Shown one piece after another: positions 724 through 15,374 of a DNA stretch of 21,723 bases. Below the pieces are notes generated by a model that did no database searches, had not been told where the DNA came from, and was given only the letters and a program-made list of their open reading frames with translations. Every line of letters starts with the position of its first letter. Position 1 is the stretch's first letter. Position numbers and translations under genes: made by a program. Source of the stretch: a virus. The DNA lies in UHGV virus genome UHGV-1576676, one strand, 5' to 3'.

Positions 724-972
724 AAATCCACTCCTACGCATGGATTAATAGTCATTGATCGCAAAGGCGTAAACTTGCCAAAGGTATTTCGTATAATCGG
801 TACAAATCTCCTTTACGCTTGATGCTGCATTAACAGTCCCAGCCATAAATAATAACGATAGTAATAGTTTTCTCATTATAACCTCACCTGCCTTATAACC
901 CATTTAGGGTACATATTTTCGCCTTTAAAAAAAAGAGGTTATTAGATCCAATTGTGTATTTATTAAGCAGAT

Positions 973-989
973 AATGCTCTAATAAATTT
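973..989 (+). promoter_or_regulatory. C1 repressor operator (Op51-like) overlapping the -35 of the immI promoter
   Basis: aatgctctaataaattt matches the P1 C1 operator consensus ATTGCTCTAATAAATTT at 16/17; its TGCTC sits 17 nt upstream of a weak -10-like taagtc; same motif recurs at 2643, 16538 and 20059. Confidence 0.6.
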
Positions 990-1179
990 GTATTTTTAAG
1001 TCACGAATGCTATCTTTTCGCATCATATTGACCTTTTAATCGTTCAGGCTTATAGTTCCGCCGTCGTAGCAAATTCTGCGACCGGGTTTAGCAGCCTGAA
1101 TGATTGTGCGGACAGCCGCAGATATCCGATATTGCGGTATTTTTGTGTCCGTAAAACCGCGTTACGCCCAAATTATGGT

Positions 1180-1260
1180 GGGGCGTGATGGGGAGGCTTC
1201 GGCCTGCTGGTTTCACAATCGCCAGTCTGCTAACCCCGTCACGTCCTGCCACCTGTTTAG
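1180..1260 (+). ncRNA. c4: c4 antisense repressor RNA region of immI (approximate boundaries)
   Basis: Lies between the operator and icd as in P1; tcacaatc (1213-1220) is complementary to gattgtga (1287-1294) overlapping the icd ribosome-binding site, and ttagcag near 1228 is echoed in the 1250-1275 target region. Exact ends not determinable by eye. Confidence 0.35.
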
Positions 1261-1303
1261 CAGCGGGTAGCAGGTTGTTAAACCTGATTGTGAGGCCGTA
1301 ACT

Positions 1304-1525
1304 ATGGTTAATGCCAATCCTTGCGCACGCCCAGAATTCATCTGGCGTTTCTATTCCTGTAAAAAACACCACTATCACTTCGTTATCGCAGCAACTGAAG
1401 ACGAAGCACGCTCTCAATTGCCTGATGGCCCCTGCATTTTTACTGCCCGTTTTTCAACTAACTCGCGCAATTCACTTAGTTACTGGAGCCTCCCCTTCTC
1501 TGCCGACGTTCAGGGGCGTTTATGA
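1304..1525 (+). CDS. icd: Icd-like small protein, translationally coupled to ant1 (ATGA overlap)
   Basis: 73-aa ORF with GAGG 9 nt upstream; stop overlaps the ant1 ATG at 1522; position between c4 and ant matches P1 immI. Confidence 0.5.
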   Translation: MVNANPCARPEFIWRFYSCKKHHYHFVIAATEDEARSQLPDGPCIFTARFSTNSRNSLSYWSLPFSADVQGRL

Positions 1526-2565
1526 AAAAACCTCTCGTCACCCGTAATGACATAGCCGAAGCGATCGCCCTGCATACTGCCTGTATACCGACACGGGAGA
1601 TCCCCGGCGCAATTGCCAACTATTTCATGATAACCAGGCGTTTTTATACCCGAACAGATAAGGCTGTGATCAACAGGCTACTGATAGCCGAGATCAGGGA
1701 TTATTTGATTGAACAAGGACGTCTACGTTACGCAACGGTGGCAGCAGAAATGAGAAAGGAGGCACATAGAATGACCAGTAATAATTTGAATGTTAAAAAA
1801 CCAGCACCTGTTGCTTCAGCAACGCCAGCACCAGCCGTGAATGTCATCCCCACCACCGGAGACACAATCGACAGCCTGACACTGTTAAAGATGGTCAATG
1901 AAGCGCGTAAGTTATGTGGGGAACCAGAGGTTCGGAACAACAAATTCATCGAAAAAATACTCGACGAATTAGAAGGTGAGGACGGTTACACAAAAAGTGC
2001 AACCGTGCCGCCAGGTGGCGGTACGCCTATGGTTGTCATAACCATGACCTACAAACAAGCCCTGCGAGTCGCCGCGCGCGAATCGAAAGCGGTCCGCCGT
2101 TCGCTGATCGACAAACTGGAAGAATTGCAGCAGGCAAACTCCCCTACCCCATCGATCCCCCAAACATTACCAGAAGCCCTACGCCTGGCTGCCGAGTTGG
2201 CAGAACAGAAATTGCAGCTGGAACAACAGCTGGTGGCCGCAGCCCCTAAAGTCGATTTTGCCGACCGGGTATCAGTGGCTAATGGAATCCTGATCGGGAA
2301 CTTTGCAAAGGTCGTTGGACTTAAGCAAAACGCCCTTTTCTCATGGTTGCGCCAGAACGGCATTCTCATGGCTTTTGGTGCGCGCAAAAACGTACCGCGC
2401 CAGCAGTACATTAACGCCGGGTATTTCACGGTGAAAGAAGTGGTGCTGGATGATGAAAATGGCTACCAGATACGGCTGACGCCCCAATTAACGGGTAAAG
2501 GCCAGCAGTGGTTAACTCGCAAGCTACTTGATGCTGGTTTGTTAAAACCAGTAGCAATAGGTTAA
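1522..2565 (+). CDS. ant1: Antirepressor Ant1 (full length)
   Basis: 347-aa ORF; its C-terminal ~130 aa is paralogous to the KilA C-terminus in this window (antirepressor C-terminal domain); synteny c4-icd-ant-kilA-repL. Confidence 0.85.
   Translation: MKKPLVTRNDIAEAIALHTACIPTREIPGAIANYFMITRRFYTRTDKAVINRLLIAEIRDYLIEQGRLRYATVAAEMRKEAHRMTSNNLNVKKPAPVASATPAPAVNVIPTTGDTIDSLTLLKMVNEARKLCGEPEVRNNKFIEKILDELEGEDGYTKSATVPPGGGTPMVVITMTYKQALRVAARESKAVRRSLIDKLEELQQANSPTPSIPQTLPEALRLAAELAEQKLQLEQQLVAAAPKVDFADRVSVANGILIGNFAKVVGLKQNALFSWLRQNGILMAFGARKNVPRQQYINAGYFTVKEVVLDDENGYQIRLTPQLTGKGQQWLTRKLLDAGLLKPVAIG
1771..2565 (+). CDS. ant2: Antirepressor Ant2, in-frame internal start within ant1
   Basis: Internal ATG at 1771 (Met84) preceded by a strong AAGGAGG at 1756-1762; P1 is known to make Ant1 and Ant2 from nested in-frame starts. 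Confidence 0.6.
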   Translation: MTSNNLNVKKPAPVASATPAPAVNVIPTTGDTIDSLTLLKMVNEARKLCGEPEVRNNKFIEKILDELEGEDGYTKSATVPPGGGTPMVVITMTYKQALRVAARESKAVRRSLIDKLEELQQANSPTPSIPQTLPEALRLAAELAEQKLQLEQQLVAAAPKVDFADRVSVANGILIGNFAKVVGLKQNALFSWLRQNGILMAFGARKNVPRQQYINAGYFTVKEVVLDDENGYQIRLTPQLTGKGQQWLTRKLLDAGLLKPVAIG

Positions 2566-2577
2566 CAAAAGAAAAAA

Positions 2578-2603
2578 CCTGCCAGCAAACTGGCAGGTTT
2601 CTG
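2578..2603 (+). terminator. Rho-independent terminator after ant
   Basis: cctgccag-caaa-ctggcagg hairpin followed by tttctg, just after the ant stop. Confidence 0.55.
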
Positions 2604-2642
2604 AGCAGATCGACCAACCCGATCTGGATCGAGTCAGAAAAA

Positions 2643-2659
2643 TTTGCTCTAATAAATTT
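2643..2659 (+). promoter_or_regulatory. C1 operator (Op53-like) overlapping the kilA-repL promoter
   Basis: tttgctctaataaattt is 16/17 to the operator consensus; TTGCTC as -35, 17-nt spacer, taagtg as -10-like; followed by the inverted repeat aatcacca...tggtgatt at 2677-2701. Confidence 0.65.
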
Positions 2660-2728
2660 CGTTTTCTAAGTGCAAAGAATCACCATTTCGAGCTGGTGAT
2701 TGAAGGTTGATGCAAATTTGGAGAAAAA

Positions 2729-3529
2729 ATGCAACAAACATTCAATGCGGATATGAATATATCAAACCTTCATCAAAATGTCGATCCTTCAACCACTCTG
2801 CCTGTTATTTGTGGTGTTGAAATTACGACCGACCGCGCTGGCCGTTACAACCTTAATGCTCTACACAGAGCGAGCGGACTCGGTGCCCATAAAGCGCCAG
2901 CTCAATGGCTAAGAACGCTGTCAGCCAAACAGCTCATCGAAGAGCTTGAAAAAGAAACTATGCAGAATTGCATAGTTTCGTTCGAAGGCCGTGGCGGCGG
3001 CACTTTTGCCCATGAATTGCTCGCTGTGGAGTACGCAGGCTGGATTTCTCCCGCGTTTCGGCTGAAGGTAAACCAGACATTTATCGACTATCGAGCCGGA
3101 AGATTACAACCTGCTATTCCGCAGAGTCTCCCTGAAGCTCTCCGTTTGGCTGCCGACCTGGCAGAGCAAAAGCAACGGCTGGAGCAAAAAATGCTTATGG
3201 ATGCACCTAAAGTCGAATTCGCCGAACGCGTTGCTACCGCCAGCGGGGTTCTAATCGGCAACTATGCCAAAGTGCTCGGTCTGGGCCAAAACTATCTCTT
3301 CACCTGGTTGCGTGATAACGGAATTCTGATCGCAACCGGTGAACGCAGGAACGTCCCCAAACAAGAATACATATCCCGTGGGTATTTCACCCTTAAAGAA
3401 ACCGTGATCGATACAAGCAATGGAAGCAGGATTTCTTTCACGACTCGTATAACCGGCAAAGGTCAGCAGTGGCTGATGAAGCGATTGCTTGATGCTGGTG
3501 TGCTGGTACCTGTCGCGGCAACGCGCTAA
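2729..3529 (+). CDS. kilA: KilA (KilA-N domain protein with antirepressor-type C-terminal domain)
   Basis: 266 aa, the length recalled for P1 KilA; GGAGA RBS; C-terminal half aligns to the Ant C-terminus (PQSLPEALRLAADLAEQ...GKGQQWL...LLDAG). Confidence 0.85.
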   Translation: MQQTFNADMNISNLHQNVDPSTTLPVICGVEITTDRAGRYNLNALHRASGLGAHKAPAQWLRTLSAKQLIEELEKETMQNCIVSFEGRGGGTFAHELLAVEYAGWISPAFRLKVNQTFIDYRAGRLQPAIPQSLPEALRLAADLAEQKQRLEQKMLMDAPKVEFAERVATASGVLIGNYAKVLGLGQNYLFTWLRDNGILIATGERRNVPKQEYISRGYFTLKETVIDTSNGSRISFTTRITGKGQQWLMKRLLDAGVLVPVAATR

Positions 3530-3558
3530 CAGACGTAGTAAGAACCACCAGCATTGTA

Positions 3559-4404
3559 ATGCTGGCTAAAGTCACTTTCCTGAGCTGTATAACGATGAGC
3601 GATTTTACTTTTTCTGGCTATGAATTGGCCTGCTTTGTAACACACTCCGGTCTATCCCGTAGCGCCGGGCATATCCTGTCGCAATGTGCAAATCTAGCGG
3701 CAACAACCAGTGAATACTTCATTCACAAGCCTCACCGCCTGATCGCGGCAGAAACTGGTTATAGCCAATCAACCGTCGTTCGTGCATTCCGTGAAGCTGT
3801 AAACAAAGGAATCCTGTCTGTAGAGATTGTTATCGGCGATCACCGTGAACGTCGCGCTAACCTGTACCGGTTTACACCATCCTTTTTGGCCTTCGCACAA
3901 CAAGCCAAAAATGCGCTGATTGAAAGCAAATTAAAGATCTCTTCAGCGGCAACCAAGGTTAAAGCTGTTCTCGCTAAGACATTGGCTTTATTTAATTTTT
4001 TATCCACACCCCCATGTCAAAATGATACCCCCTCCCCCTGTCAGGATGACGTGGCAATAAAGAATAAGAAGTCACAAGTTAAAAAAACAAAAAGATCAGT
4101 TTCCGGCGGTGCCGGAACGAGCAGACTCAAAAAATTGACTTCATGGATCGCTGAGGCAAAAGCAAAGGCTGACAATCTGCGGTTATCCAAAAAACGCGCT
4201 CAAAAACATGAGTTCAAGCAGAAAGTAGAGGCGGCAGCGCGGAAATATGCTTACCTGAAGAACAAGCGTTCTCCTGATATTGGCGGGGTATCAAACTTCG
4301 ATAATCTGCCGCATTGCATGATGGTAAACGAAGCTCTTAATGCGGTTTTAGCCAAAAATAAAGATAACGAACAATGGGGTATACCGGCGGGATTCAGAGG
4401 GTGA
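3559..4404 (+). CDS. repL: RepL lytic replication initiator (oriL expected inside the gene)
   Basis: 281 aa, the length recalled for P1 RepL, directly downstream of kilA; start is uncertain (no clear SD at 3559; alternative Met13 at 3595). Confidence 0.75.
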   Translation: MLAKVTFLSCITMSDFTFSGYELACFVTHSGLSRSAGHILSQCANLAATTSEYFIHKPHRLIAAETGYSQSTVVRAFREAVNKGILSVEIVIGDHRERRANLYRFTPSFLAFAQQAKNALIESKLKISSAATKVKAVLAKTLALFNFLSTPPCQNDTPSPCQDDVAIKNKKSQVKKTKRSVSGGAGTSRLKKLTSWIAEAKAKADNLRLSKKRAQKHEFKQKVEAAARKYAYLKNKRSPDIGGVSNFDNLPHCMMVNEALNAVLAKNKDNEQWGIPAGFRG

Positions 4405-4617
4405 TAGATTGCTCTAATCTGGAGTCACCTGGCGTTTTCAGTATGGATTTTCTTTGGCGCGGTCTGGCCATTAGGGATCATGTTTGCTGCAACATTTCTT
4501 CTGATGTGGATATTCACCCTTCCCGGTGATTTCTATAGAAAAAAAGCCAGACATTGATACAATCATTGCGGGTGCTTGAGGCTATCTGCTTCAGGCATTA
4601 CCCGAAAAGCAGATAGA

Positions 4618-4688
4618 AGAAAGCCCCAGATAACATTACGCGTCCTGCAAGACGCTTAACATTAATCTGAGGCAATATCTATGCTTAG
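4618..4688 (-). ncRNA. sok: Sok-like antisense RNA (approximate)
   Basis: Minus-strand promoter: -35 TTGACC (complement of 4720-4725), 18-nt spacer, -10 TAATCT (complement of 4696-4701), firing antisense across the mok start and hok leader as in R1 hok/sok. Confidence 0.45.
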
Positions 4689-4887
4689 CATACGTAGATT
4701 AGCCTCTTACCGACCAAAAGGTCAAGGAGAAGCAGGCTATGAAGCAGCAAAAAGCGATATTAATCGCTCTGATCGTCATCTGTTTAACCGTCATTGTGAC
4801 GGCACTGGTAACGAGGAAAGACCTCTGCGAGGTACGAATCCGAACCGGCCAGACGGAGGTCACTGTCTTCACAGCCTACGAATCTGA
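4681..4887 (+). CDS. mok: Mok-like overlapping reading frame (modulator of killing)
   Basis: 68-aa ORF starting 58 nt upstream of hok and covering it in another frame, as mok does in hok/sok loci. Confidence 0.5.
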   Translation: MLSIRRLASYRPKGQGEAGYEAAKSDINRSDRHLFNRHCDGTGNEERPLRGTNPNRPDGGHCLHSLRI

Positions 4888-4894
4888 AAGGTAA
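4739..4894 (+). CDS. hok: Hok/Gef family membrane toxin (type I toxin-antitoxin)
   Basis: Own translation: MKQQKAILIALIVICLTVIVTALVTRKDLCEVRIRTGQTEVTVFTAYESER (51 aa), collinear with R1 Hok (…[28 protein letters not shown]); the leader from ~4570 (gcttgaggct…) resembles the R1 hok mRNA 5' end. Confidence 0.9.
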   Translation: MKQQKAILIALIVICLTVIVTALVTRKDLCEVRIRTGQTEVTVFTAYESER

Positions 4895-4965
4895 GAGACC
4901 TGGCGGGGAGAGATCCTCGCCACTCTTCGTGTGTCAGGTATCCTCAATGCACCCTTTCCTCTCCA

Positions 4966-4996
4966 AATAAAAAAGCTCCCGAAGGAGCTTTAAAAT
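4966..4996. terminator. Bidirectional rho-independent terminator between hok (+) and the late genes (-)
   Basis: agctcc-cgaa-ggagct hairpin flanked by aaataaaaa on the 5' side and ttaaaa on the 3' side. Confidence 0.55.
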
Positions 4997-5010
4997 ACAA
5001 GGGATGACTC

Positions 5011-5520
5011 TTAATCCCACTCAATCCAGTTGTAGACGATACGAAGTGACGGGCGCACAGCGGCAGTCACATCTTCGGTACTAAAGTCGATTGCATCACT
5101 GTAGATTTTGCAGTCCAACATTTCAATTGTTGTAGCAGCTTTTGTCACAGCGTTAACCCCGGAAGATTTGGATTCAGGGGTAGCAGCCATCGTGATATCA
5201 ACATAGTCCTTCGCCGCAATGCGATCTTTAATGAACTGAAGAATATCGCCTTCGATAGTCTCCACGCACTGGACCTGGATTTCCCCAGAGTTTCGAATTG
5301 GACCGTGCTGGTTGAACTTCACACCATTCGGACCATAGTCCTCCACATCCTCGCGGGTCATTTCAGGAATTTGCGACGTGCGAACCAGTACGCTGATATC
5401 TTCATGGCCTGCAAAAGTGAGCTGGAATTCAGAAGATACCAGTCGTTCGCCTTTGGCCGCGTTGGCAGTATAGCGGCCCTTAATAAATTTACGGTTTCCC
5501 TTAGTGTTATTGTGCCCCAT
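5011..5520 (-). CDS. Phage late/morphogenesis protein, 169 aa (tail-associated; function not assignable from sequence)
   Basis: AAAGGA RBS; compact same-strand array downstream of the sheath/head genes; C-terminus ...IVYNWIEWD loosely recalls tail-tube protein endings, but in P1 the tube gene is recalled to lie elsewhere. Confidence 0.6.
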   Translation of the reverse strand: MGHNNTKGNRKFIKGRYTANAAKGERLVSSEFQLTFAGHEDISVLVRTSQIPEMTREDVEDYGPNGVKFNQHGPIRNSGEIQVQCVETIEGDILQFIKDRIAAKDYVDITMAATPESKSSGVNAVTKAATTIEMLDCKIYSDAIDFSTEDVTAAVRPSLRIVYNWIEWD

Positions 5521-5531
5521 ATAAAATCCTT

Positions 5532-6113
5532 TTACTGGAACGCCCGAACAATATCGGAGCTGTTATATATCGAAGAACCGGTCAACTGGAGGTTGACGGT
5601 GTTTTTCAGGAAATGTCCATTGCTGTCCCTGGGCGCATCGAGATCGAAACTTATGTCCTGGATAGCGACATCAATGATGTTGATCCGGCGACCAATGTTT
5701 AGCGTCACACGCTCCGGGATTCGACCACCAATACTGGCATCTTTAAGTTCCGGGCTAATCATCGCTGACAATGCGGCGATAGCTCCTGAAACCTCCGTGA
5801 ATGGGTCAAACAAAGCGATGAAAGTTACTGGCAGCGTGAAAGTCGGCGGTGTTCCCCCTTCCCAAACCATTAAGCTGTTCCAACGGGCAACCGACGTTGT
5901 TTCAGTACCAACCTGCGCAAAACCACTGAAGGCACCAGCAACAGATCCCATGGACATACCGGTAAACGGCGCTTCCCAATTCTGGGCCATGTTCATTGCC
6001 GCTCCCTGGCTGATATATCCGGTAACCTGGTACTGAGAGTTCGTTAAAGTAACTTTCAGATATGGCGATACACCGTCAGCCTGGCTGTAAACCCCATAAG
6101 GAATAGGTGCCAT
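5532..6113 (-). CDS. Phage late/morphogenesis protein, 193 aa (putative tail or baseplate component)
   Basis: Long ORF tightly packed in the late operon, 12-nt gap to the next gene; no recognisable enzymatic motif. Confidence 0.6.
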   Translation of the reverse strand: MAPIPYGVYSQADGVSPYLKVTLTNSQYQVTGYISQGAAMNMAQNWEAPFTGMSMGSVAGAFSGFAQVGTETTSVARWNSLMVWEGGTPPTFTLPVTFIALFDPFTEVSGAIAALSAMISPELKDASIGGRIPERVTLNIGRRINIIDVAIQDISFDLDAPRDSNGHFLKNTVNLQLTGSSIYNSSDIVRAFQ

Positions 6114-6148
6114 TCAAGTTAAAGGCCGGAGTTCTCCGGCCTCCTCCT

Positions 6149-6964
6149 TTAGCCAAGGCGCTTACGGCGCAGTTTCATTGACTTTTTGCGGGCAAGTTTT
6201 GCCGCGCCGGTCTGGGCTTTTCGACGCGCTTTTTTCAGCGCCGATTTTTGAGCCGCAGTCAGACGTTTTTTACGCAGGCGTTTACGGATGAGTTTGATCT
6301 CACCGTTACGAACAACCTTCTTAAATGCTTCAGTCAGCATTTCATCAGAAGTGCCAGCAACAACAAACGCCGCTTCCAGTTCGTCGCGGTCGTCGCTATC
6401 TAAACCAGCGATAGAGGCACCAACATCAGCAGCTGCGTCGTCGTCTTCATCGTCAGCCAGTGCTTCGATCAGGTCATCATCTACACCGCATGCTGCGAGG
6501 AAGTCAGCAACATTTGCCCATGCTTCGTTATAGGCATCGTCCTGTTCTTCTGTAACTTCGGAGTCGTCGTCATCAGAGATACCAGCGATAGCCTGAACGA
6601 AACCATCAAGGGAGTCGAAAGTCAGATCACCGCTATCAGCCCAGGCGAAAACGGCGTCGGCCGCATCACTCAACGCATTTTGCATAGCACTTCGATTTGC
6701 AGCTTCCAGAATCATCTGGTGCGCCTGTTCGACGGTCCATTCTTTACCGTCTTTCCCTTCCAGGATTTGCTCAGGAGCCTGGGCAGATGGAACGTTATCG
6801 TTAGTCTGTGCCGCCGGTTCCGGATTATTATTAATAACCGGATCTGTTGGCGGTTCAGCGCTTGCTCGGGCAGACTCCATCAGCTGCACAGGATCAGAGT
6901 TCAAAGCGAAACGAGACAGTCCATTCCCCAAAAATGCCCCGGATTGAAAAAAGTTTTTGCTCAT
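6149..6964 (-). CDS. Phage late protein, 271 aa, highly acidic core with strongly basic Lys/Arg-rich C-terminal tail
   Basis: Immediately downstream of the sheath gene (10-nt gap); DDDDSEVTEEQDD and DDEDDD acidic runs, then ...IRKRLRKKRLTAAQKSALKKARRKAQTGAAKLARKKSMKLRRKRLG. Confidence 0.65.
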   Translation of the reverse strand: MSKNFFQSGAFLGNGLSRFALNSDPVQLMESARASAEPPTDPVINNNPEPAAQTNDNVPSAQAPEQILEGKDGKEWTVEQAHQMILEAANRSAMQNALSDAADAVFAWADSGDLTFDSLDGFVQAIAGISDDDDSEVTEEQDDAYNEAWANVADFLAACGVDDDLIEALADDEDDDAAADVGASIAGLDSDDRDELEAAFVVAGTSDEMLTEAFKKVVRNGEIKLIRKRLRKKRLTAAQKSALKKARRKAQTGAAKLARKKSMKLRRKRLG

Positions 6965-6973
6965 TGTATTCCC

Positions 6974-8563
6974 TTACTTAATAAGCAGCGGTACGCCCTG
7001 GATACGACGGGCTACGCCAGTCGGGCAGCAGGCCCAGACTACTTCCCATTTATCGAATTCCGCCTGCGTAACTTTCAGCACATACGGTTCTGTACCGTCA
7101 GCATCAGGATCACGAGGAGCCACCAGAGCGCCGGAGGCGACAAAGCGATCTAAAAGTTTGGTCATCCCTTTAGTCAGGCCAGCCGCAGTAATACCGTCCG
7201 GGCTATGCTTCATCTGTCGGGCTAACTGGACAAAGAAACGGCTGATTGCATTCATCAGGGATGGGACGTGCTGGAAGTGCAGATAGTTATCCTGCGTGCA
7301 GCAAGTTAAAGCATCGTCGATGATCATCTGGCCAGAGGTGCCAACAGATACTTTATTGAGACGGCCCTTGACCATTGCTTCTTCGTCCGGGGTATCTTCC
7401 GGATACAGCGGTTGAATTGACGCACGAGCAATGACGGCACGTTCTTCACCAGCCGGTGAGTAATGCCAACCGCCGACATCAGAGTTTTTCTTGACGCCAC
7501 GAGCTTTCGCCGCATACGCCACGCCAGACAGACCAAAGACCACACGGGATTGGGTCCATTTGTCTTTGCAGGAGAACGGGTAGTGATAGACAGCACAGCT
7601 TACATAATCGGTACCAAGTAAACCGGTATCTTCAACAGCAGAGATCGCTTCCGTGTACGTCAATGTCGGTTTGACATCAAAGAAGCCATCAATCAGGCGA
7701 TCTGCACAGATTTTACCTAATGCGGTGATAGCCGCATTGTCATAGCAGCCCAGGCCAAGAACAGCGGTGTACATGTACGGCGCATTATTCAGCACTTTAA
7801 CCGCACGCAGGTACGCAGCGGTTGAGATTTTCGACTGATCGCCGTTGGTACCGCCAGTGAACGCCAACGATTTTTTGTTTGTTACTTTCGCTGTCGAAAT
7901 CAGCTCTTCATTAACAACCGCGCGCAGATATTTAGAACGGGCTTCCAGAGCCGTAGGCAGATAACACAAGCGGCCCATGTCATCTTTCGCTTCTTCCGCC
8001 AAAGACACAGTGTGTGTCTCCAGGGTCGTTACCACGCCGAGCGAAGTCGTCTGGGTCAGTTTTAAGAGGAAGCGTTCATTACCCGCGCTGTCCGCTGTTG
8101 CCGTTTCGATGGTTAACTCACGGGTAGGTGAAATACACGGATCACCATCATCAACGTAGATAGCAAAGGCTTCGCCACTATCAAGTTCAATTTCAGAACC
8201 GTATGGCAACGCACTGTAAGCCGGTTCGCCTGATTCATCGAACATAATAATCGGGAACTTCGCATCATCCGGAACAGCGCGAACAACATAACCAGACGTT
8301 TGCTGAATAGCTTCGTATACATGGCGAATTGGTTCGAACTGTGAGCCGGAAGACGGCTTCAGCGGTTCGCCGAGAACATCTTCGTAATTGGACTCAGTAA
8401 CCGCAAGAACAGTAAACGGCTTGCCACGCGCAAATACGCCAATACCAGCCCATAAGCTGCTATTTAATGCAACACCGGTAGATAACGTCGCATCGGCATT
8501 GATCGGGCTAACCGCGACGCCGGATGCATTACCTAATGACTGTTGAATTGAATATTGAGACAT
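6974..8563 (-). CDS. Putative contractile tail sheath protein (P1 gene 22-like)
   Basis: 529 aa (~57 kDa), directly downstream of the putative major head gene and next to parS as in P1; product assigned by synteny and size, not by motif. Confidence 0.55.
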   Translation of the reverse strand: MSQYSIQQSLGNASGVAVSPINADATLSTGVALNSSLWAGIGVFARGKPFTVLAVTESNYEDVLGEPLKPSSGSQFEPIRHVYEAIQQTSGYVVRAVPDDAKFPIIMFDESGEPAYSALPYGSEIELDSGEAFAIYVDDGDPCISPTRELTIETATADSAGNERFLLKLTQTTSLGVVTTLETHTVSLAEEAKDDMGRLCYLPTALEARSKYLRAVVNEELISTAKVTNKKSLAFTGGTNGDQSKISTAAYLRAVKVLNNAPYMYTAVLGLGCYDNAAITALGKICADRLIDGFFDVKPTLTYTEAISAVEDTGLLGTDYVSCAVYHYPFSCKDKWTQSRVVFGLSGVAYAAKARGVKKNSDVGGWHYSPAGEERAVIARASIQPLYPEDTPDEEAMVKGRLNKVSVGTSGQMIIDDALTCCTQDNYLHFQHVPSLMNAISRFFVQLARQMKHSPDGITAAGLTKGMTKLLDRFVASGALVAPRDPDADGTEPYVLKVTQAEFDKWEVVWACCPTGVARRIQGVPLLIK

Positions 8564-8623
8564 AACTTTCCCTGTTATGCGCCCCGCACGGGGGCGCTAT
8601 GTTAAACGGAGAACTACCCCTGA

Positions 8624-10351
8624 TTACTCAGAGTCACCGGCATCAATCGTGTCGCCGCTAATGAAGTTAAGCCCGCCTTTTTTGGCCATTGTCAGCGTTA
8701 CACGAGTGAAGTAATCAGCGCCGTTGCGTGGGTGCATATCGTTGATAGCCGAACCCCACAGCGTGGTACGGTTGACCAGCGCCGGAGTGGTCGGATGCTG
8801 GAACGGGATGGCCGGGACAGCATCACCAGTCACGAAGCCTGCTTTACCCGGATTTTCATCACGGACGTAGCACAGCACATCCATCGAGCTGAACTGAATG
8901 TTCTCTGTCGTTAAGTTCTTACAAATACCAGCAGGTACTTCGTACACTTTCACGTTACCGAACAGGGTACCGATGTAGTGAACATACGGAGTCTGGATAT
9001 AGTCTTCGGCTGGCTGGAAGAAATCCTTCGGCAACTGTTTGAAGAAAGATGCTGCATCAGCACCAGCAAACATCCCCATCGCACCAGAAGATTTAACGCG
9101 CTCAATAATGTCGCGATATACAGTCTGGAATTTGCCACGAATGATGGTTGCCCATACATCAAAGGACTGGTTAACCGGCAGAGCGATGTCAAAGGTGTCG
9201 GTCGCAAGAGTACGCCAGATCATGATGCGAAGACGCAGCATATCCTGTTCATGAGACAGGTATTCCTTCAGGGTGCGGAACTGTAGGGAACCCAGGTCCA
9301 GACCAAATTCACGCTGTGCTTCATACGCCGCCTGTACCGTGTGCTCAGCCGCGATAACGAACTGGCTTGGGAACAGGGTGTATTTCTTCATTTCGTGGTT
9401 GATCAGCGGGATCAGCTCAGGAGCGGCTTCAATATTGATTTCCGTCTCAATTGCGATCTCAGTGCCTTTATCCGGCGCTTTGGAGAACGACAGGGCAATC
9501 TGACCAATGTTGTAGTTCAGAGAGCAGGTAACAGTGATTTGCTCACCAGCAGCATTAGTAAACGAGTGAAGTAGGCTGCCGGAACCGTTATCAACAACAG
9601 ACTTAATACGGTTAACGTAGATATTAGTGCGACCTTTTCGGATTGGTACATTCTGGCCTTCGAAGTCTTCCATCTTGAAGGTTGCGGTTTTGCTGGTGCC
9701 ATCGGAGCTTGCCACCAGCACATAGCGGCGGCGTAACTGGCTGTACACACCGACGGATTGCATGTCCAGAACATCACCAGCAGCATAAGAACCAAAAGAG
9801 GAACCTGCCACGTTAAAGACTTCATAGATGTCGGACTGGTCACGCGTAACCGGAATGAAGGTACACGCATCAGCGGTAGCTGCCCCCAACTGAACAGGCA
9901 GGATCATCGCGAGGAATAAAGGCAGACGCATAACACCGTCAGAAACGCTCATCATCTCTGCTGCGACGGATTCCAGCATCGCTTTATTAGTGGCATCCAT
10001 GCTATTGCGGGTGGACTCAATCAGGCAGTTTTCCAGCGTCTGGTGGCAGGAGGCCAGAATTTCCGGACGCGGCATAGATTTATGTGCTGCGGCGTAGTCA
10101 GCCAGTGCACTTGCCCACGCTGTAGCGATTTGAGCGGTGGCATTATCAGAGATACCCGCAAAAACCGGGTCTTTACGTGCAGCTTCAAGGATAGATGCGG
10201 CACGCGCGGCATCATCTTTAATGAATTGGTTATCAGTACCGAACTGCGCAGTGCTTGCCCAGCCAAGCACAGCTTTAGAGCGTTTTGCGATATCTGCAAT
10301 ACGATTCTGGTATTCGCGTAAGTTACTCAATTTACTCTTCCTTAAACACAA
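8624..10351 (-). CDS. Putative major head (capsid) protein precursor (P1 gene 23-like); start codon uncertain
   Basis: 575-aa ORF opening at a TTG (10349-10351); a more plausible start is the in-frame TTG at 10328-10330, preceded by AGGAAG; no in-frame ATG for ~90 codons. Confidence 0.55.
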   Translation of the reverse strand: MCLRKSKLSNLREYQNRIADIAKRSKAVLGWASTAQFGTDNQFIKDDAARAASILEAARKDPVFAGISDNATAQIATAWASALADYAAAHKSMPRPEILASCHQTLENCLIESTRNSMDATNKAMLESVAAEMMSVSDGVMRLPLFLAMILPVQLGAATADACTFIPVTRDQSDIYEVFNVAGSSFGSYAAGDVLDMQSVGVYSQLRRRYVLVASSDGTSKTATFKMEDFEGQNVPIRKGRTNIYVNRIKSVVDNGSGSLLHSFTNAAGEQITVTCSLNYNIGQIALSFSKAPDKGTEIAIETEINIEAAPELIPLINHEMKKYTLFPSQFVIAAEHTVQAAYEAQREFGLDLGSLQFRTLKEYLSHEQDMLRLRIMIWRTLATDTFDIALPVNQSFDVWATIIRGKFQTVYRDIIERVKSSGAMGMFAGADAASFFKQLPKDFFQPAEDYIQTPYVHYIGTLFGNVKVYEVPAGICKNLTTENIQFSSMDVLCYVRDENPGKAGFVTGDAVPAIPFQHPTTPALVNRTTLWGSAINDMHPRNGADYFTRVTLTMAKKGGLNFISGDTIDAGDSE

Positions 10352-14024: not shown

Positions 14025-14029
14025 ATTAC

Positions 14030-14310
14030 TTTTTCCGAATTGTGTGGATAGTTTTTATAAGTGGTGATAACTACCCAGGCTTTCCCGTCAGCACACATCC
14101 TATATCCCGCCAGCACACATTAGCAACCCGTCAGCACACATTTTTATCCCTCCAGCACACATCGTTTTCCCTCCAGCACACATCGCGATACACTTCTAAG
14201 CCAGACGTGGCGCGGCCTGCAACGATCAGGGATCTATATGGATCTAATTGGGATCTGTATGGACCTGATTATTGGATCTATCCAGTGGATAATGTGGATA
14301 AGTGAAAAAC
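14030..14310 (-). other. oriR: oriR plasmid replication origin: DnaA box, incC iterons, GATC-rich heptamer repeats, tandem DnaA boxes
   Basis: tgtggatag (14043-14051); five iterons at 14081-14184; five GATC sites in gatctat-type heptamers at 14224-14278; DnaA boxes agtggataa / tgtggataa at 14285-14302. Confidence 0.85.
14081..14184. repeat. incC: incC: five direct 19-bp iterons containing the repA promoter
   Basis: Five cagcacacat(c/t) iterons spaced ~21-23 bp apart, immediately upstream of repA. Confidence 0.85.
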
Positions 14311-14342
14311 CGGCCAACGTAGCCGGTTGGAAGGGAGTCGTA

Positions 14343-14735
14343 TTATTCTACGCTTTCGATGAGAAGACCATGTTCATAGCATTTAAGCTCATCGCCCTCG
14401 TACAGGAATTGGTATCCAATACCACCATATTCAGGCACATTAGGGAATAACTCATCACTTACCGAAGAACAAATCACACCAATGCAGCGATCAACGCCTT
14501 CTCGTTCTTCAGTGCTGAAAAAATCCTCTTCGGTAAGAACATGAGTACATTGCTCATCAGCATAGGTCGGAAATACATGCTCAATGCAATCCGGGTGTTT
14601 TAAACCAAGCTGATCGGCAAGCTCGAAAGCACGACGGTATTGTTCAGATCCTGGCTTGCCAACAGTGATTTGCTCAATTTTGTAGATTGAAGTCGCTTTG
14701 TTGATAGTTTGCTTTACTGTTACTTTATCAGACAT
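14343..14735 (-). CDS. Hypothetical protein (P1 upfA-like position)
   Basis: 130-aa ORF just beyond oriR on the repA strand; Cys/His-rich; assignment by synteny only. Confidence 0.55.
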   Translation of the reverse strand: MSDKVTVKQTINKATSIYKIEQITVGKPGSEQYRRAFELADQLGLKHPDCIEHVFPTYADEQCTHVLTEEDFFSTEEREGVDRCIGVICSSVSDELFPNVPEYGGIGYQFLYEGDELKCYEHGLLIESVE

Positions 14736-14746
14736 AAAAATCCCTT

Positions 14747-15079
14747 TTAGTTACCGCTAATAGCTCGGTTGTAATCATTAACGTTGCGATTCTTCCTGTT
14801 AATCCCCATCAGCATCGTTTCTGTATCGAGGATATACGCTGGCAGATCATCAAAATATTCACTGCTAAACTCTGGCATCCTGCACATAAATGCACTTTTG
14901 GGGGCAGGGTGGTTAACCTTTGTCGGCGTCGGCGTTAAATTCGCTGATCGACTCCCGGAGCAACCGCTGAGTGTCAGCAGGAATACGCTGGCGAACATTA
15001 CCCGCCGCAACCAGGTGTTTCTGAACTTCAGCTTTTCGTTCCATTTGCCTGTCAGCATACTTGGCTTGTTCTGATTCAT
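14747..15079 (-). CDS. mlp: Small lipoprotein precursor (P1 mlp-like); candidate outer-membrane spanin subunit
   Basis: AGGAAG 6 nt upstream of the ATG; basic N-region, hydrophobic VMFASVFLLTL, lipobox LSGC; overlaps the 3' end of the ppfA-like gene by 167 nt in another frame. Confidence 0.6.
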   Translation of the reverse strand: MNQNKPSMLTGKWNEKLKFRNTWLRRVMFASVFLLTLSGCSGSRSANLTPTPTKVNHPAPKSAFMCRMPEFSSEYFDDLPAYILDTETMLMGINRKNRNVNDYNRAISGN

Positions 15080-15335
15080 TTTTCACTTCCTGGCTGTGAA
15101 AATGTTGCTCTGCTTTGTTCATCGTCTCAATGGTCTGGTTAAGATCCATTATTGACTTATCACGCTCCTTAACAGCCTGATCAAGACTGCCAATTTTCTC
15201 TATGGCTTGCTTTAGCTGATGACGTTCCCATGCAAACCCAGCACCAACAAGTGCGCAAATCAGAACAAGAACACCAGTAGCAGCAAGTTTCTCCTTCAAA
15301 GACAAAGCTGTTTTTAACGTAGAAAAGAATGACAT
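14913..15335 (-). CDS. Membrane-anchored coiled-coil protein (P1 ppfA-like); candidate inner-membrane spanin subunit
   Basis: AGGAGG 5 nt upstream of ATG (MSFFSTL...); one N-terminal transmembrane helix (LAATGVLVLICALVGAGFAW) then a charged segment with coiled-coil-like periodicity. Confidence 0.6.
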   Translation of the reverse strand: MSFFSTLKTALSLKEKLAATGVLVLICALVGAGFAWERHQLKQAIEKIGSLDQAVKERDKSIMDLNQTIETMNKAEQHFHSQEVKNESEQAKYADRQMERKAEVQKHLVAAGNVRQRIPADTQRLLRESISEFNADADKG

Positions 15336-15374
15336 GTCTTCCTCCTGAAGAAAAATTATCAATGAAGTCCTTTG

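Follow-up and report, generated by a model that had tools for sequence, protein, structure and literature searches.

A predicted hok/mok/sok toxin–antitoxin locus of lambdoid-prophage type behind repL in a P1-like phage-plasmid

What does a P1-like phage-plasmid keep in the slot behind repL, and what would it be for? In the UHGV virus genome UHGV-1576676, of which one strand of 21,723 nucleotides (nt) was analysed (the window from here on), an initial annotation made from the letters alone had placed a hok/mok/sok type I toxin–antitoxin module at 4570-4996, next to the lytic replicon, where the P1 map was said to have rlfA and rlfB. That was accurate: reference P1 (NC_005856) has rlfA-rlfB-pmgF here, and comparison of the region downstream of repL shows homology to this reference running through repL to 4418 and resuming at 4969, with 1,826 bp of P1 replaced by 550 bp in the window. 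The features described below make it very probable that 4536-4961 is a complete hok/mok/sok locus of the hokW/hokD clade, working by the canonical mechanism and providing post-segregational killing on a low-copy plasmid prophage. The cassette is thus real, with limits other than those first drawn: the imported part spans 4567-4954, and 4969-4996 is P1 backbone.

Does the locus encode a Hok toxin? The hok frame in the open reading frame (ORF) list (4739-4894, plus strand) specifies a product of 51 amino acids (aa), MKQQKAILIALIVICLTVIVTALVTRKDLCEVRIRTGQTEVTVFTAYESER, whose similarity to Hok/Gef proteins, a point on which the initial annotation had made its proposal depend, is significant. The product scores 76.3 bits against Pfam PF01848 HOK_GEF (cut-off 22), with residues 7-47 on profile positions 2-42 of 42, and it matches PHROG 251 ('MokW-like host killing') over its full length at 108.8 bits. 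The NCBIfam Hok models score the same product under their own cut-offs (50.2 versus 73), so the name 'HokD' given by PGAP could not be reproduced from them. At the residue level it shares 46 of 51 positions with the Hok of a Rac-type prophage, 46 of 51 with HokW and 28 of 51 with R1 Hok; against K-12 HokD the figure is 47 of 51.

The overlapping mok frame claimed at the outset is also present. It occupies 4681-4887 on the plus strand, encodes 68 aa in the +1 frame relative to hok and covers nearly all of hok; its Shine-Dalgarno sequence would be GAGG at 4669-4672, 9-12 nt 5' of the mok ATG (4681). Mok is identical to its Rac-type counterpart, which uses the same frame, at 61 of 68 residues, and the 58 nt from the mok ATG to the hok ATG are the same distance as in canonical R1. 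The frame is not constant across relatives. The mok ATG lies 57 nt before the hok ATG in 933W hokW (1616-1828) and in an R1-type variant on an IncFII plasmid (NZ_CP128973, 444-659), which puts mok in frame and yields an N-terminally extended Hok, whereas the window, Rac and canonical R1 share the 58-nt offset and the +1 frame. In 933W this single-nucleotide difference extends HokW to 70 aa.

How would the mRNA begin? A hok/mok promoter is predicted on the plus strand at 4536-4563 (-35 TAGAAA, 16-nt spacer, extended -10 TGaTACAAT), with 9 of 12 matches plus the TG in a consensus scan and a putative +1 at about 4570. A gap of 6 nt separates it from the conserved 5' end GGGUGCUUGAGG, a spacing common to Rac, 933W and R1, and the start first proposed for the module, 4570, lies just 3' of the promoter. 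From there the leader opens with GGGUGCUUGAGGCU, and its 5' GCUUGAGGCU is invariant in a four-way alignment. Searched with the small-RNA models of Rfam in a scan of the whole window, 4570-4744 (plus strand) matches RF01794 ('sok') at 114.3 bits, over the gathering score of 59 (E=1e-25). The match is end to end (model 1-157, with model position 1 at 4570). What does this hit mean? Although the family is named 'sok antitoxin', the model corresponds to the strand of the hok mRNA and stops at the hok AUG, so the hit marks a conserved structured leader carrying the Sok target and not antisense transcription.

The initial annotation had also described an R1-like leader about 50 nt shorter than that of R1. 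The shortening did not survive measurement: 169 nt separate +1 (4570) from the hok ATG, compared with 173 nt in canonical R1, whose leader sequence matches plasmid records exactly, and 168 nt in the IncFII variant. The full-length hok mRNA would run over 4570-4961 (plus strand, about 390 nt), its 5' end set by homology and by the start of the Rfam model; for the 3' end the model is the 398-nt R1 mRNA, which stops a few nt past the element called fbi.

Would such an RNA fold as the family requires? The RNA was folded as 4570-4957 or 4570-4992, and an R1-type locus passed through the same script served as positive control. The full-length fold is much more stable than expected (z = -8.6, with 0 of 100 shuffles as good), and the elements sought in it, tac, ucb and fbi, are all in place in the minimum free energy (MFE) structure. 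The tac element is the 5' end itself (4570-4581, plus strand, GGGUGCUUGAGG) and is predicted to pair with fbi in the full-length RNA and locally in the nascent or truncated RNA. The fbi element (4942-4954, plus strand, CCUCAAUGCACCC) is complementary to tac with one bulged base, giving 12 bp in two predicted helices, 4570-4575/4949-4954 and 4576-4581/4942-4947, in both the MFE and the centroid structure. Relative to R1 this pairing shows a compensatory change, GUGC/GCAC here and GCGC/GCGC in R1. The ucb element (4704-4711, plus strand, CUCUUACC) falls within the invariant block UAGCCUCUUACC of the four-way alignment and pairs in every fold with dcb (4890-4897, plus strand, GGUAAGAG), which spans the hok stop codon, while the mok AUG region (4681-4694) is buried in the MFE by pairing with 4928-4941. 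Between dcb and fbi stands a GC-rich 3' hairpin at 4901-4922 (plus strand, UGGCGGGGA-GAGA-UCCUCGCCA), the equivalent of the R1 hairpin where 3' processing stops. The R1-type control gave a like layout: tac/fbi at 1-7/385-391, ucb/dcb at 137-142/319-324 and the GC hairpin at 335-356 (helix 335-343/348-356).

A separate observation concerns this hairpin. Within it, 4907-4916 (GGAGAGATCC) is the reverse complement of the 10-bp target duplication GGATCTCTCC of IS186B in pSvP1, an insertion that Venturini et al. placed between bplB and the lytic replicon (PMC6906374). The match suggests that IS186B in pSvP1 sits within the hok locus.

What would keep the toxin silent? The convergent minus-strand promoter that had been proposed at the outset is present at 4696-4725 (-35 TTGACC at 4725-4720, 18-nt spacer, -10 TAATCT at 4701-4696), and in the alignment its hexamers fall exactly on those of the Sok promoters in R1 (TTGCGC/17/TATCCT) and 933W (TTGCCT/17/TAACCT). 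The homologous -10 has been altered in sokW: in a 'promoter-less' construct made with primers YO-421/422, TAGGTTA was changed to CCGGCTC, which kills this -10, and antitoxin activity was lost (PMC8621323). The Sok RNA itself is predicted on the minus strand at 4619-4689 (about 71 nt) by transferring the sokW annotation of 933W through the alignment. In the predicted fold about 16 nt at its 5' end form an unpaired tail, next to a long terminator-like hairpin and a U-rich end, and the RNA would be complementary to the mok Shine-Dalgarno sequence (GAGG) and AUG.

Where does the cassette come from? Its closest DNA relative found is the hok/mok locus of a Rac-type prophage (MN652886), 90.6% identical over 392 nt, followed by hokW of 933W at 86.7% (over 388 nt). 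The alignment to R1 parB, proposed at the outset, gave a single alignable stretch of 44 nt at 77% identity. The description 'R1-like' was therefore rejected at the DNA level; of the leader first described, the start and the family-level structure stand. Since whole-cassette identity ties it to Rac and 933W, with R1 alignable over only 44 nt, the cassette on sequence grounds belongs to the lambdoid-prophage hokW/hokD clade and not to R1. Homology with the lambdoid loci stops at 4954.

The likeness to hokW-mokW-sokW of Stx2 phage 933W and Sakai prophage 5, Sp5 (AF125520), extends to the position of the Sok promoter and to the Sok-target hairpin, which in both is extended by some 16-18 nt that the Rfam consensus and R1 do not have, a feature of the clade; both loci are housed in a temperate phage. 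In 933W this is an integrated lambdoid prophage, here a plasmid prophage, and the flanks differ. Chromosomal HokD/RelF is a further close relative; unlike K-12 hokD, which is described as being without its regulatory leader, the copy in the window has a full leader and a predicted Sok.

Because the DNA alignment with R1 covers only 44 nt, the two loci were compared element by element and by folding. The order of elements is the same, and tac/fbi, ucb/dcb, the 3' GC hairpin and the position of the Sok promoter are common to both. Counted from +1, the mok ATG stands at +112 here and +116 in R1, and the hok ATG at +170 and +174; Mok has 68 aa compared with 70, and the mRNA about 390 nt compared with 398. 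The differences lie in the DNA, with almost nothing alignable beyond short conserved boxes, in the Hok sequence itself, in a shorter 5' hairpin and longer Sok-target hairpin here, and in the carrier, as the R1 locus resides on a conjugative IncFII plasmid.

How common is this arrangement? Counted as the segment 4405-5010 at at least 80% coverage in PLSDB, the hok arrangement is found in 296 plasmids, nearly all of them non-mobilizable E. coli plasmids. The P1 segment with rlfA-rlfB-pmgF is found in 99, and a repL of the window type in 507. The majority allele, with 296 plasmids versus 99, is hok; that of reference P1 and P7 is the minority one. The initial annotation regarded the module as acquired by this phage-plasmid in addition to phd/doc. 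It does occupy the rlfA/rlfB slot and phd/doc is present beside a 100% identical locus, on a plasmid that also carries a Tn3-borne RelE/Phd pair; hok thus adds to the addiction system that P1 already has, as had been claimed. An acquisition particular to this element it is not, being the commonest allele. Among complete E. coli genomes, 272 of 5,426 carry the locus in this context and 4,745 of 5,426 have at least one similar hok locus; similar loci occupy 10,137 chromosomal places compared with 897 on plasmids, and many lambdoid and Stx phages are among the matches. The locus itself is found unbroken, with an identity of at least 99%, in more than 200 records.

The kind of system is already known and this very copy is annotated in public records: in 100% identical records the toxin appears as 'type I toxin-antitoxin system toxin HokD', and in a GenBank P1 isolate as MokW. 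As the family mechanism is textbook matter and a close relative has been characterised, the locus carries little weight as a discovery. What is mapped here are mok, Sok and the mRNA elements, which the public records omit, naming the toxin alone. The literature search found no paper naming hok/sok at this P1 site or mapping its RNA elements, and what is written on the site amounts to passing mentions of 'type I and II TA modules' and of an 'antibacterial toxin'. Most natural P1-like plasmids have hok/sok besides phd/doc and laboratory reference P1 does not, a point that bears on the stability of antibiotic-resistance-bearing phage-plasmids now under surveillance.

How would the system work? 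Following the canonical scheme of the R1 and hokW systems, the weak hok promoter would produce a stable mRNA of about 390 nt, in which tac-fbi and ucb-dcb pairing would bury the mok start, so that the message would be neither translated nor bound by Sok. Slow trimming from the 3' end as far as the GC hairpin (4901-4922) would remove fbi and expose the mok translation start. The stronger convergent promoter would meanwhile supply the short-lived Sok of about 71 nt, which on the mok start region would block translation of mok and, being coupled to it, of hok, the duplex going to RNase III. Were the supply of Sok to end, because the plasmid is lost or transcription is stopped or disturbed, translation of the stable mRNA would follow and the 51-aa Hok would damage the inner membrane. 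For a plasmid prophage, by analogy, the benefit would most likely lie in the killing of plasmid-free segregants, beside what phd/doc does; possible further roles are help in lysis upon induction and the exclusion of other phages.

Several points weigh against this account of the locus. Many chromosomal hok loci are inactive, so that an intact sequence is no proof of activity, and for this copy transcription, processing, toxicity and biological role are argued from relatives. No clear plus-strand intrinsic terminator follows fbi, which is why the 3' end of the mRNA was placed by analogy. Pairing of tac with ucb is absent from the MFE of 3'-truncated RNAs at the four cut points used, where tac pairs locally instead; the R1 control behaves alike. 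The Sok -10, TAATCT, matches the consensus at 3 of 6 positions and the generic promoter scan did not report the site for that reason, so positional homology with validated promoters was used in its place. Killing after plasmid loss would be redundant where phd/doc shares the replicon. Finally, the only demonstrated function of the nearest studied relative is to aid phage release, not to stabilise a plasmid (PMC8621323).

Is the selected role then lytic? The alternatives concern the role for which the locus was selected, not its identity, and this one is not exclusive of segregant killing: on induction Sok would fall, Hok would be made, and membrane damage would advance or help lysis and phage release. 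In Sp5, hokW-sokW is a pair of toxin and RNA antitoxin with a partial dependence on RNase III and Hfq; mitomycin C treatment is followed by the RecA-dependent loss of sokW RNA and appearance of HokW, and deletion of the locus halves phage release (PMC8621323). That effect is about two-fold, and it was seen in a different phage. The predominance of prophage-borne members in the clade speaks for a lytic role, as does the redundancy with phd/doc, addiction being already supplied. So does placement: the locus lies directly 3' of the C1-repressed kilA-repL operon on the same strand, and because just one weak terminator-like site (4514-4529) intervenes, read-through after induction could run into the Sok promoter facing it. 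Read-through from repL and loss of Sok on P1 induction are putative here, and reference P1 and P7, which lyse normally, are without the module. On balance a lytic role is a possible but less probable explanation than killing of plasmid-free segregants. Protection of the lysogen population from other phages, by abortive infection or exclusion, is rather unlikely as the main selected role. Here shut-off of transcription by an infecting lytic phage would deplete Sok and release Hok; R1 hok/sok on a high-copy plasmid lowered the plating efficiency and plaque size of T4, according to the passage of PMC8621323 that cites the work, and defence-type cargo is frequent in those regions of P1-like elements that are variable, with SIR2-family and restriction-modification genes annotated on a related plasmid. 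The R1 effect was modest and obtained at high copy, whereas P1 plasmids are low copy, and this copy is without a distinguishing defence-specific feature. A relic that is neither expressed nor toxic, like several chromosomal copies, is improbable still more clearly: inactivation is frequent among chromosomal loci, the neighbouring ORF in the same interval has been cut by a 143-bp deletion, and the IS186B target duplication of pSvP1 matches the 3' hairpin (PMC6906374), but both frames and all regulatory elements are intact and match those of functional relatives, the deletion stops 91 nt short of the predicted hok -35 (4536), and the near-identity is kept across the records counted above.

Could the position of the cassette itself tie Hok output to prophage induction? 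It is a speculative idea to which we give a low probability: co-oriented behind C1-repressed kilA-repL, with the operator core at 4408-4418, hok would lie in the path of derepressed repL read-through, which would meet the Sok promoter head-on, and the resulting 5'-extended hok transcripts would be unable to form the tac/fbi lock. If true, hok would be a device for assisting lysis or for commitment, instead of or besides an addiction module, and the same mechanism would account for the unexplained RecA-dependent loss of sokW RNA in Sp5. The P1 system is in any case a handy place to ask whether a prophage-type hok/sok serves addiction, lysis timing or phage exclusion.

How is the cassette joined to the P1 backbone? 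The locus fits variable region 5 of P1-like phage-plasmids, with repL and the C1 operator Op55/Orlf on one side and the bplB terminator on the other, the same slot that holds rlfA-rlfB-pmgF in P1. The contents are unrelated, P1 having a DUF3800 protein, RlfB and PmgF; we know of no toxin–antitoxin function for rlfA-rlfB-pmgF. Eight variable regions are recognised in these elements, that interval among them (PMC9603915), and variability at the site was already known (PMC9603915; PMC6906374). By P1 annotation and sequence comparison the operator covers 4408-4424 (plus strand), directly 3' of repL; the left breakpoint, 4418, falls inside its 17 bp, with the core ATTGCTCTAAT (4408-4418) kept in what is now a hybrid, putative operator. 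On the other side, the bplB terminator hairpin (4972-4991, AAAGCTCC-CGAA-GGAGCTTT) belongs to the P1 backbone and to the convergent bplB gene. It is strong on the minus strand and has a poor T-tail on the plus strand; read-through from hok may find a back-stop in it.

The space between the breakpoint and the cassette (4419-4566) holds what is left of a predicted 81-aa membrane ORF that sits between repL and hok and is intact in most relatives. The surviving 3' part (4441-4557, plus strand) belongs to PHROG 3772 (unknown function), is labelled 'membrane domain protein' by PGAP in identical records, and overlaps the hok promoter with its 3' end. The 143-bp deletion, at about 4440-4445, removed the first half of the ORF; among the matches listed it recurs in five records of PLSDB and in one further genome record of RefSeq, the others having the long form. 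Import of this ORF together with hok as one block from a lambdoid phage was considered and rejected, as the ORF is confined to P1-like phages (the SJ46 version is 44% identical) and lambdoid homology begins at 4567.

Some observations on the rest of the window complete the picture. The C1 operator core ATTGCTCTAAT occurs five times in it compared with 0.42 expected, at 973-983, 2643-2653, 16538-16548 and 20059-20069 besides the copy behind repL. Elements of immI (the C4 antisense RNA and its a1/b1 targets) at 1050-1102 and 1171-1256, and two adjacent tRNA genes at 20741-20813 and 20819-20891, all pass the Rfam thresholds, as fits a P1-like backbone. Against NZ_CP040069, whose hok locus is 100% identical, the window is 99.67% identical over 737-10010 and about 97% over 14025-21723, and bases 1-736 are without alignment to the compared part of that record; this uneven identity suggests a mosaic backbone.

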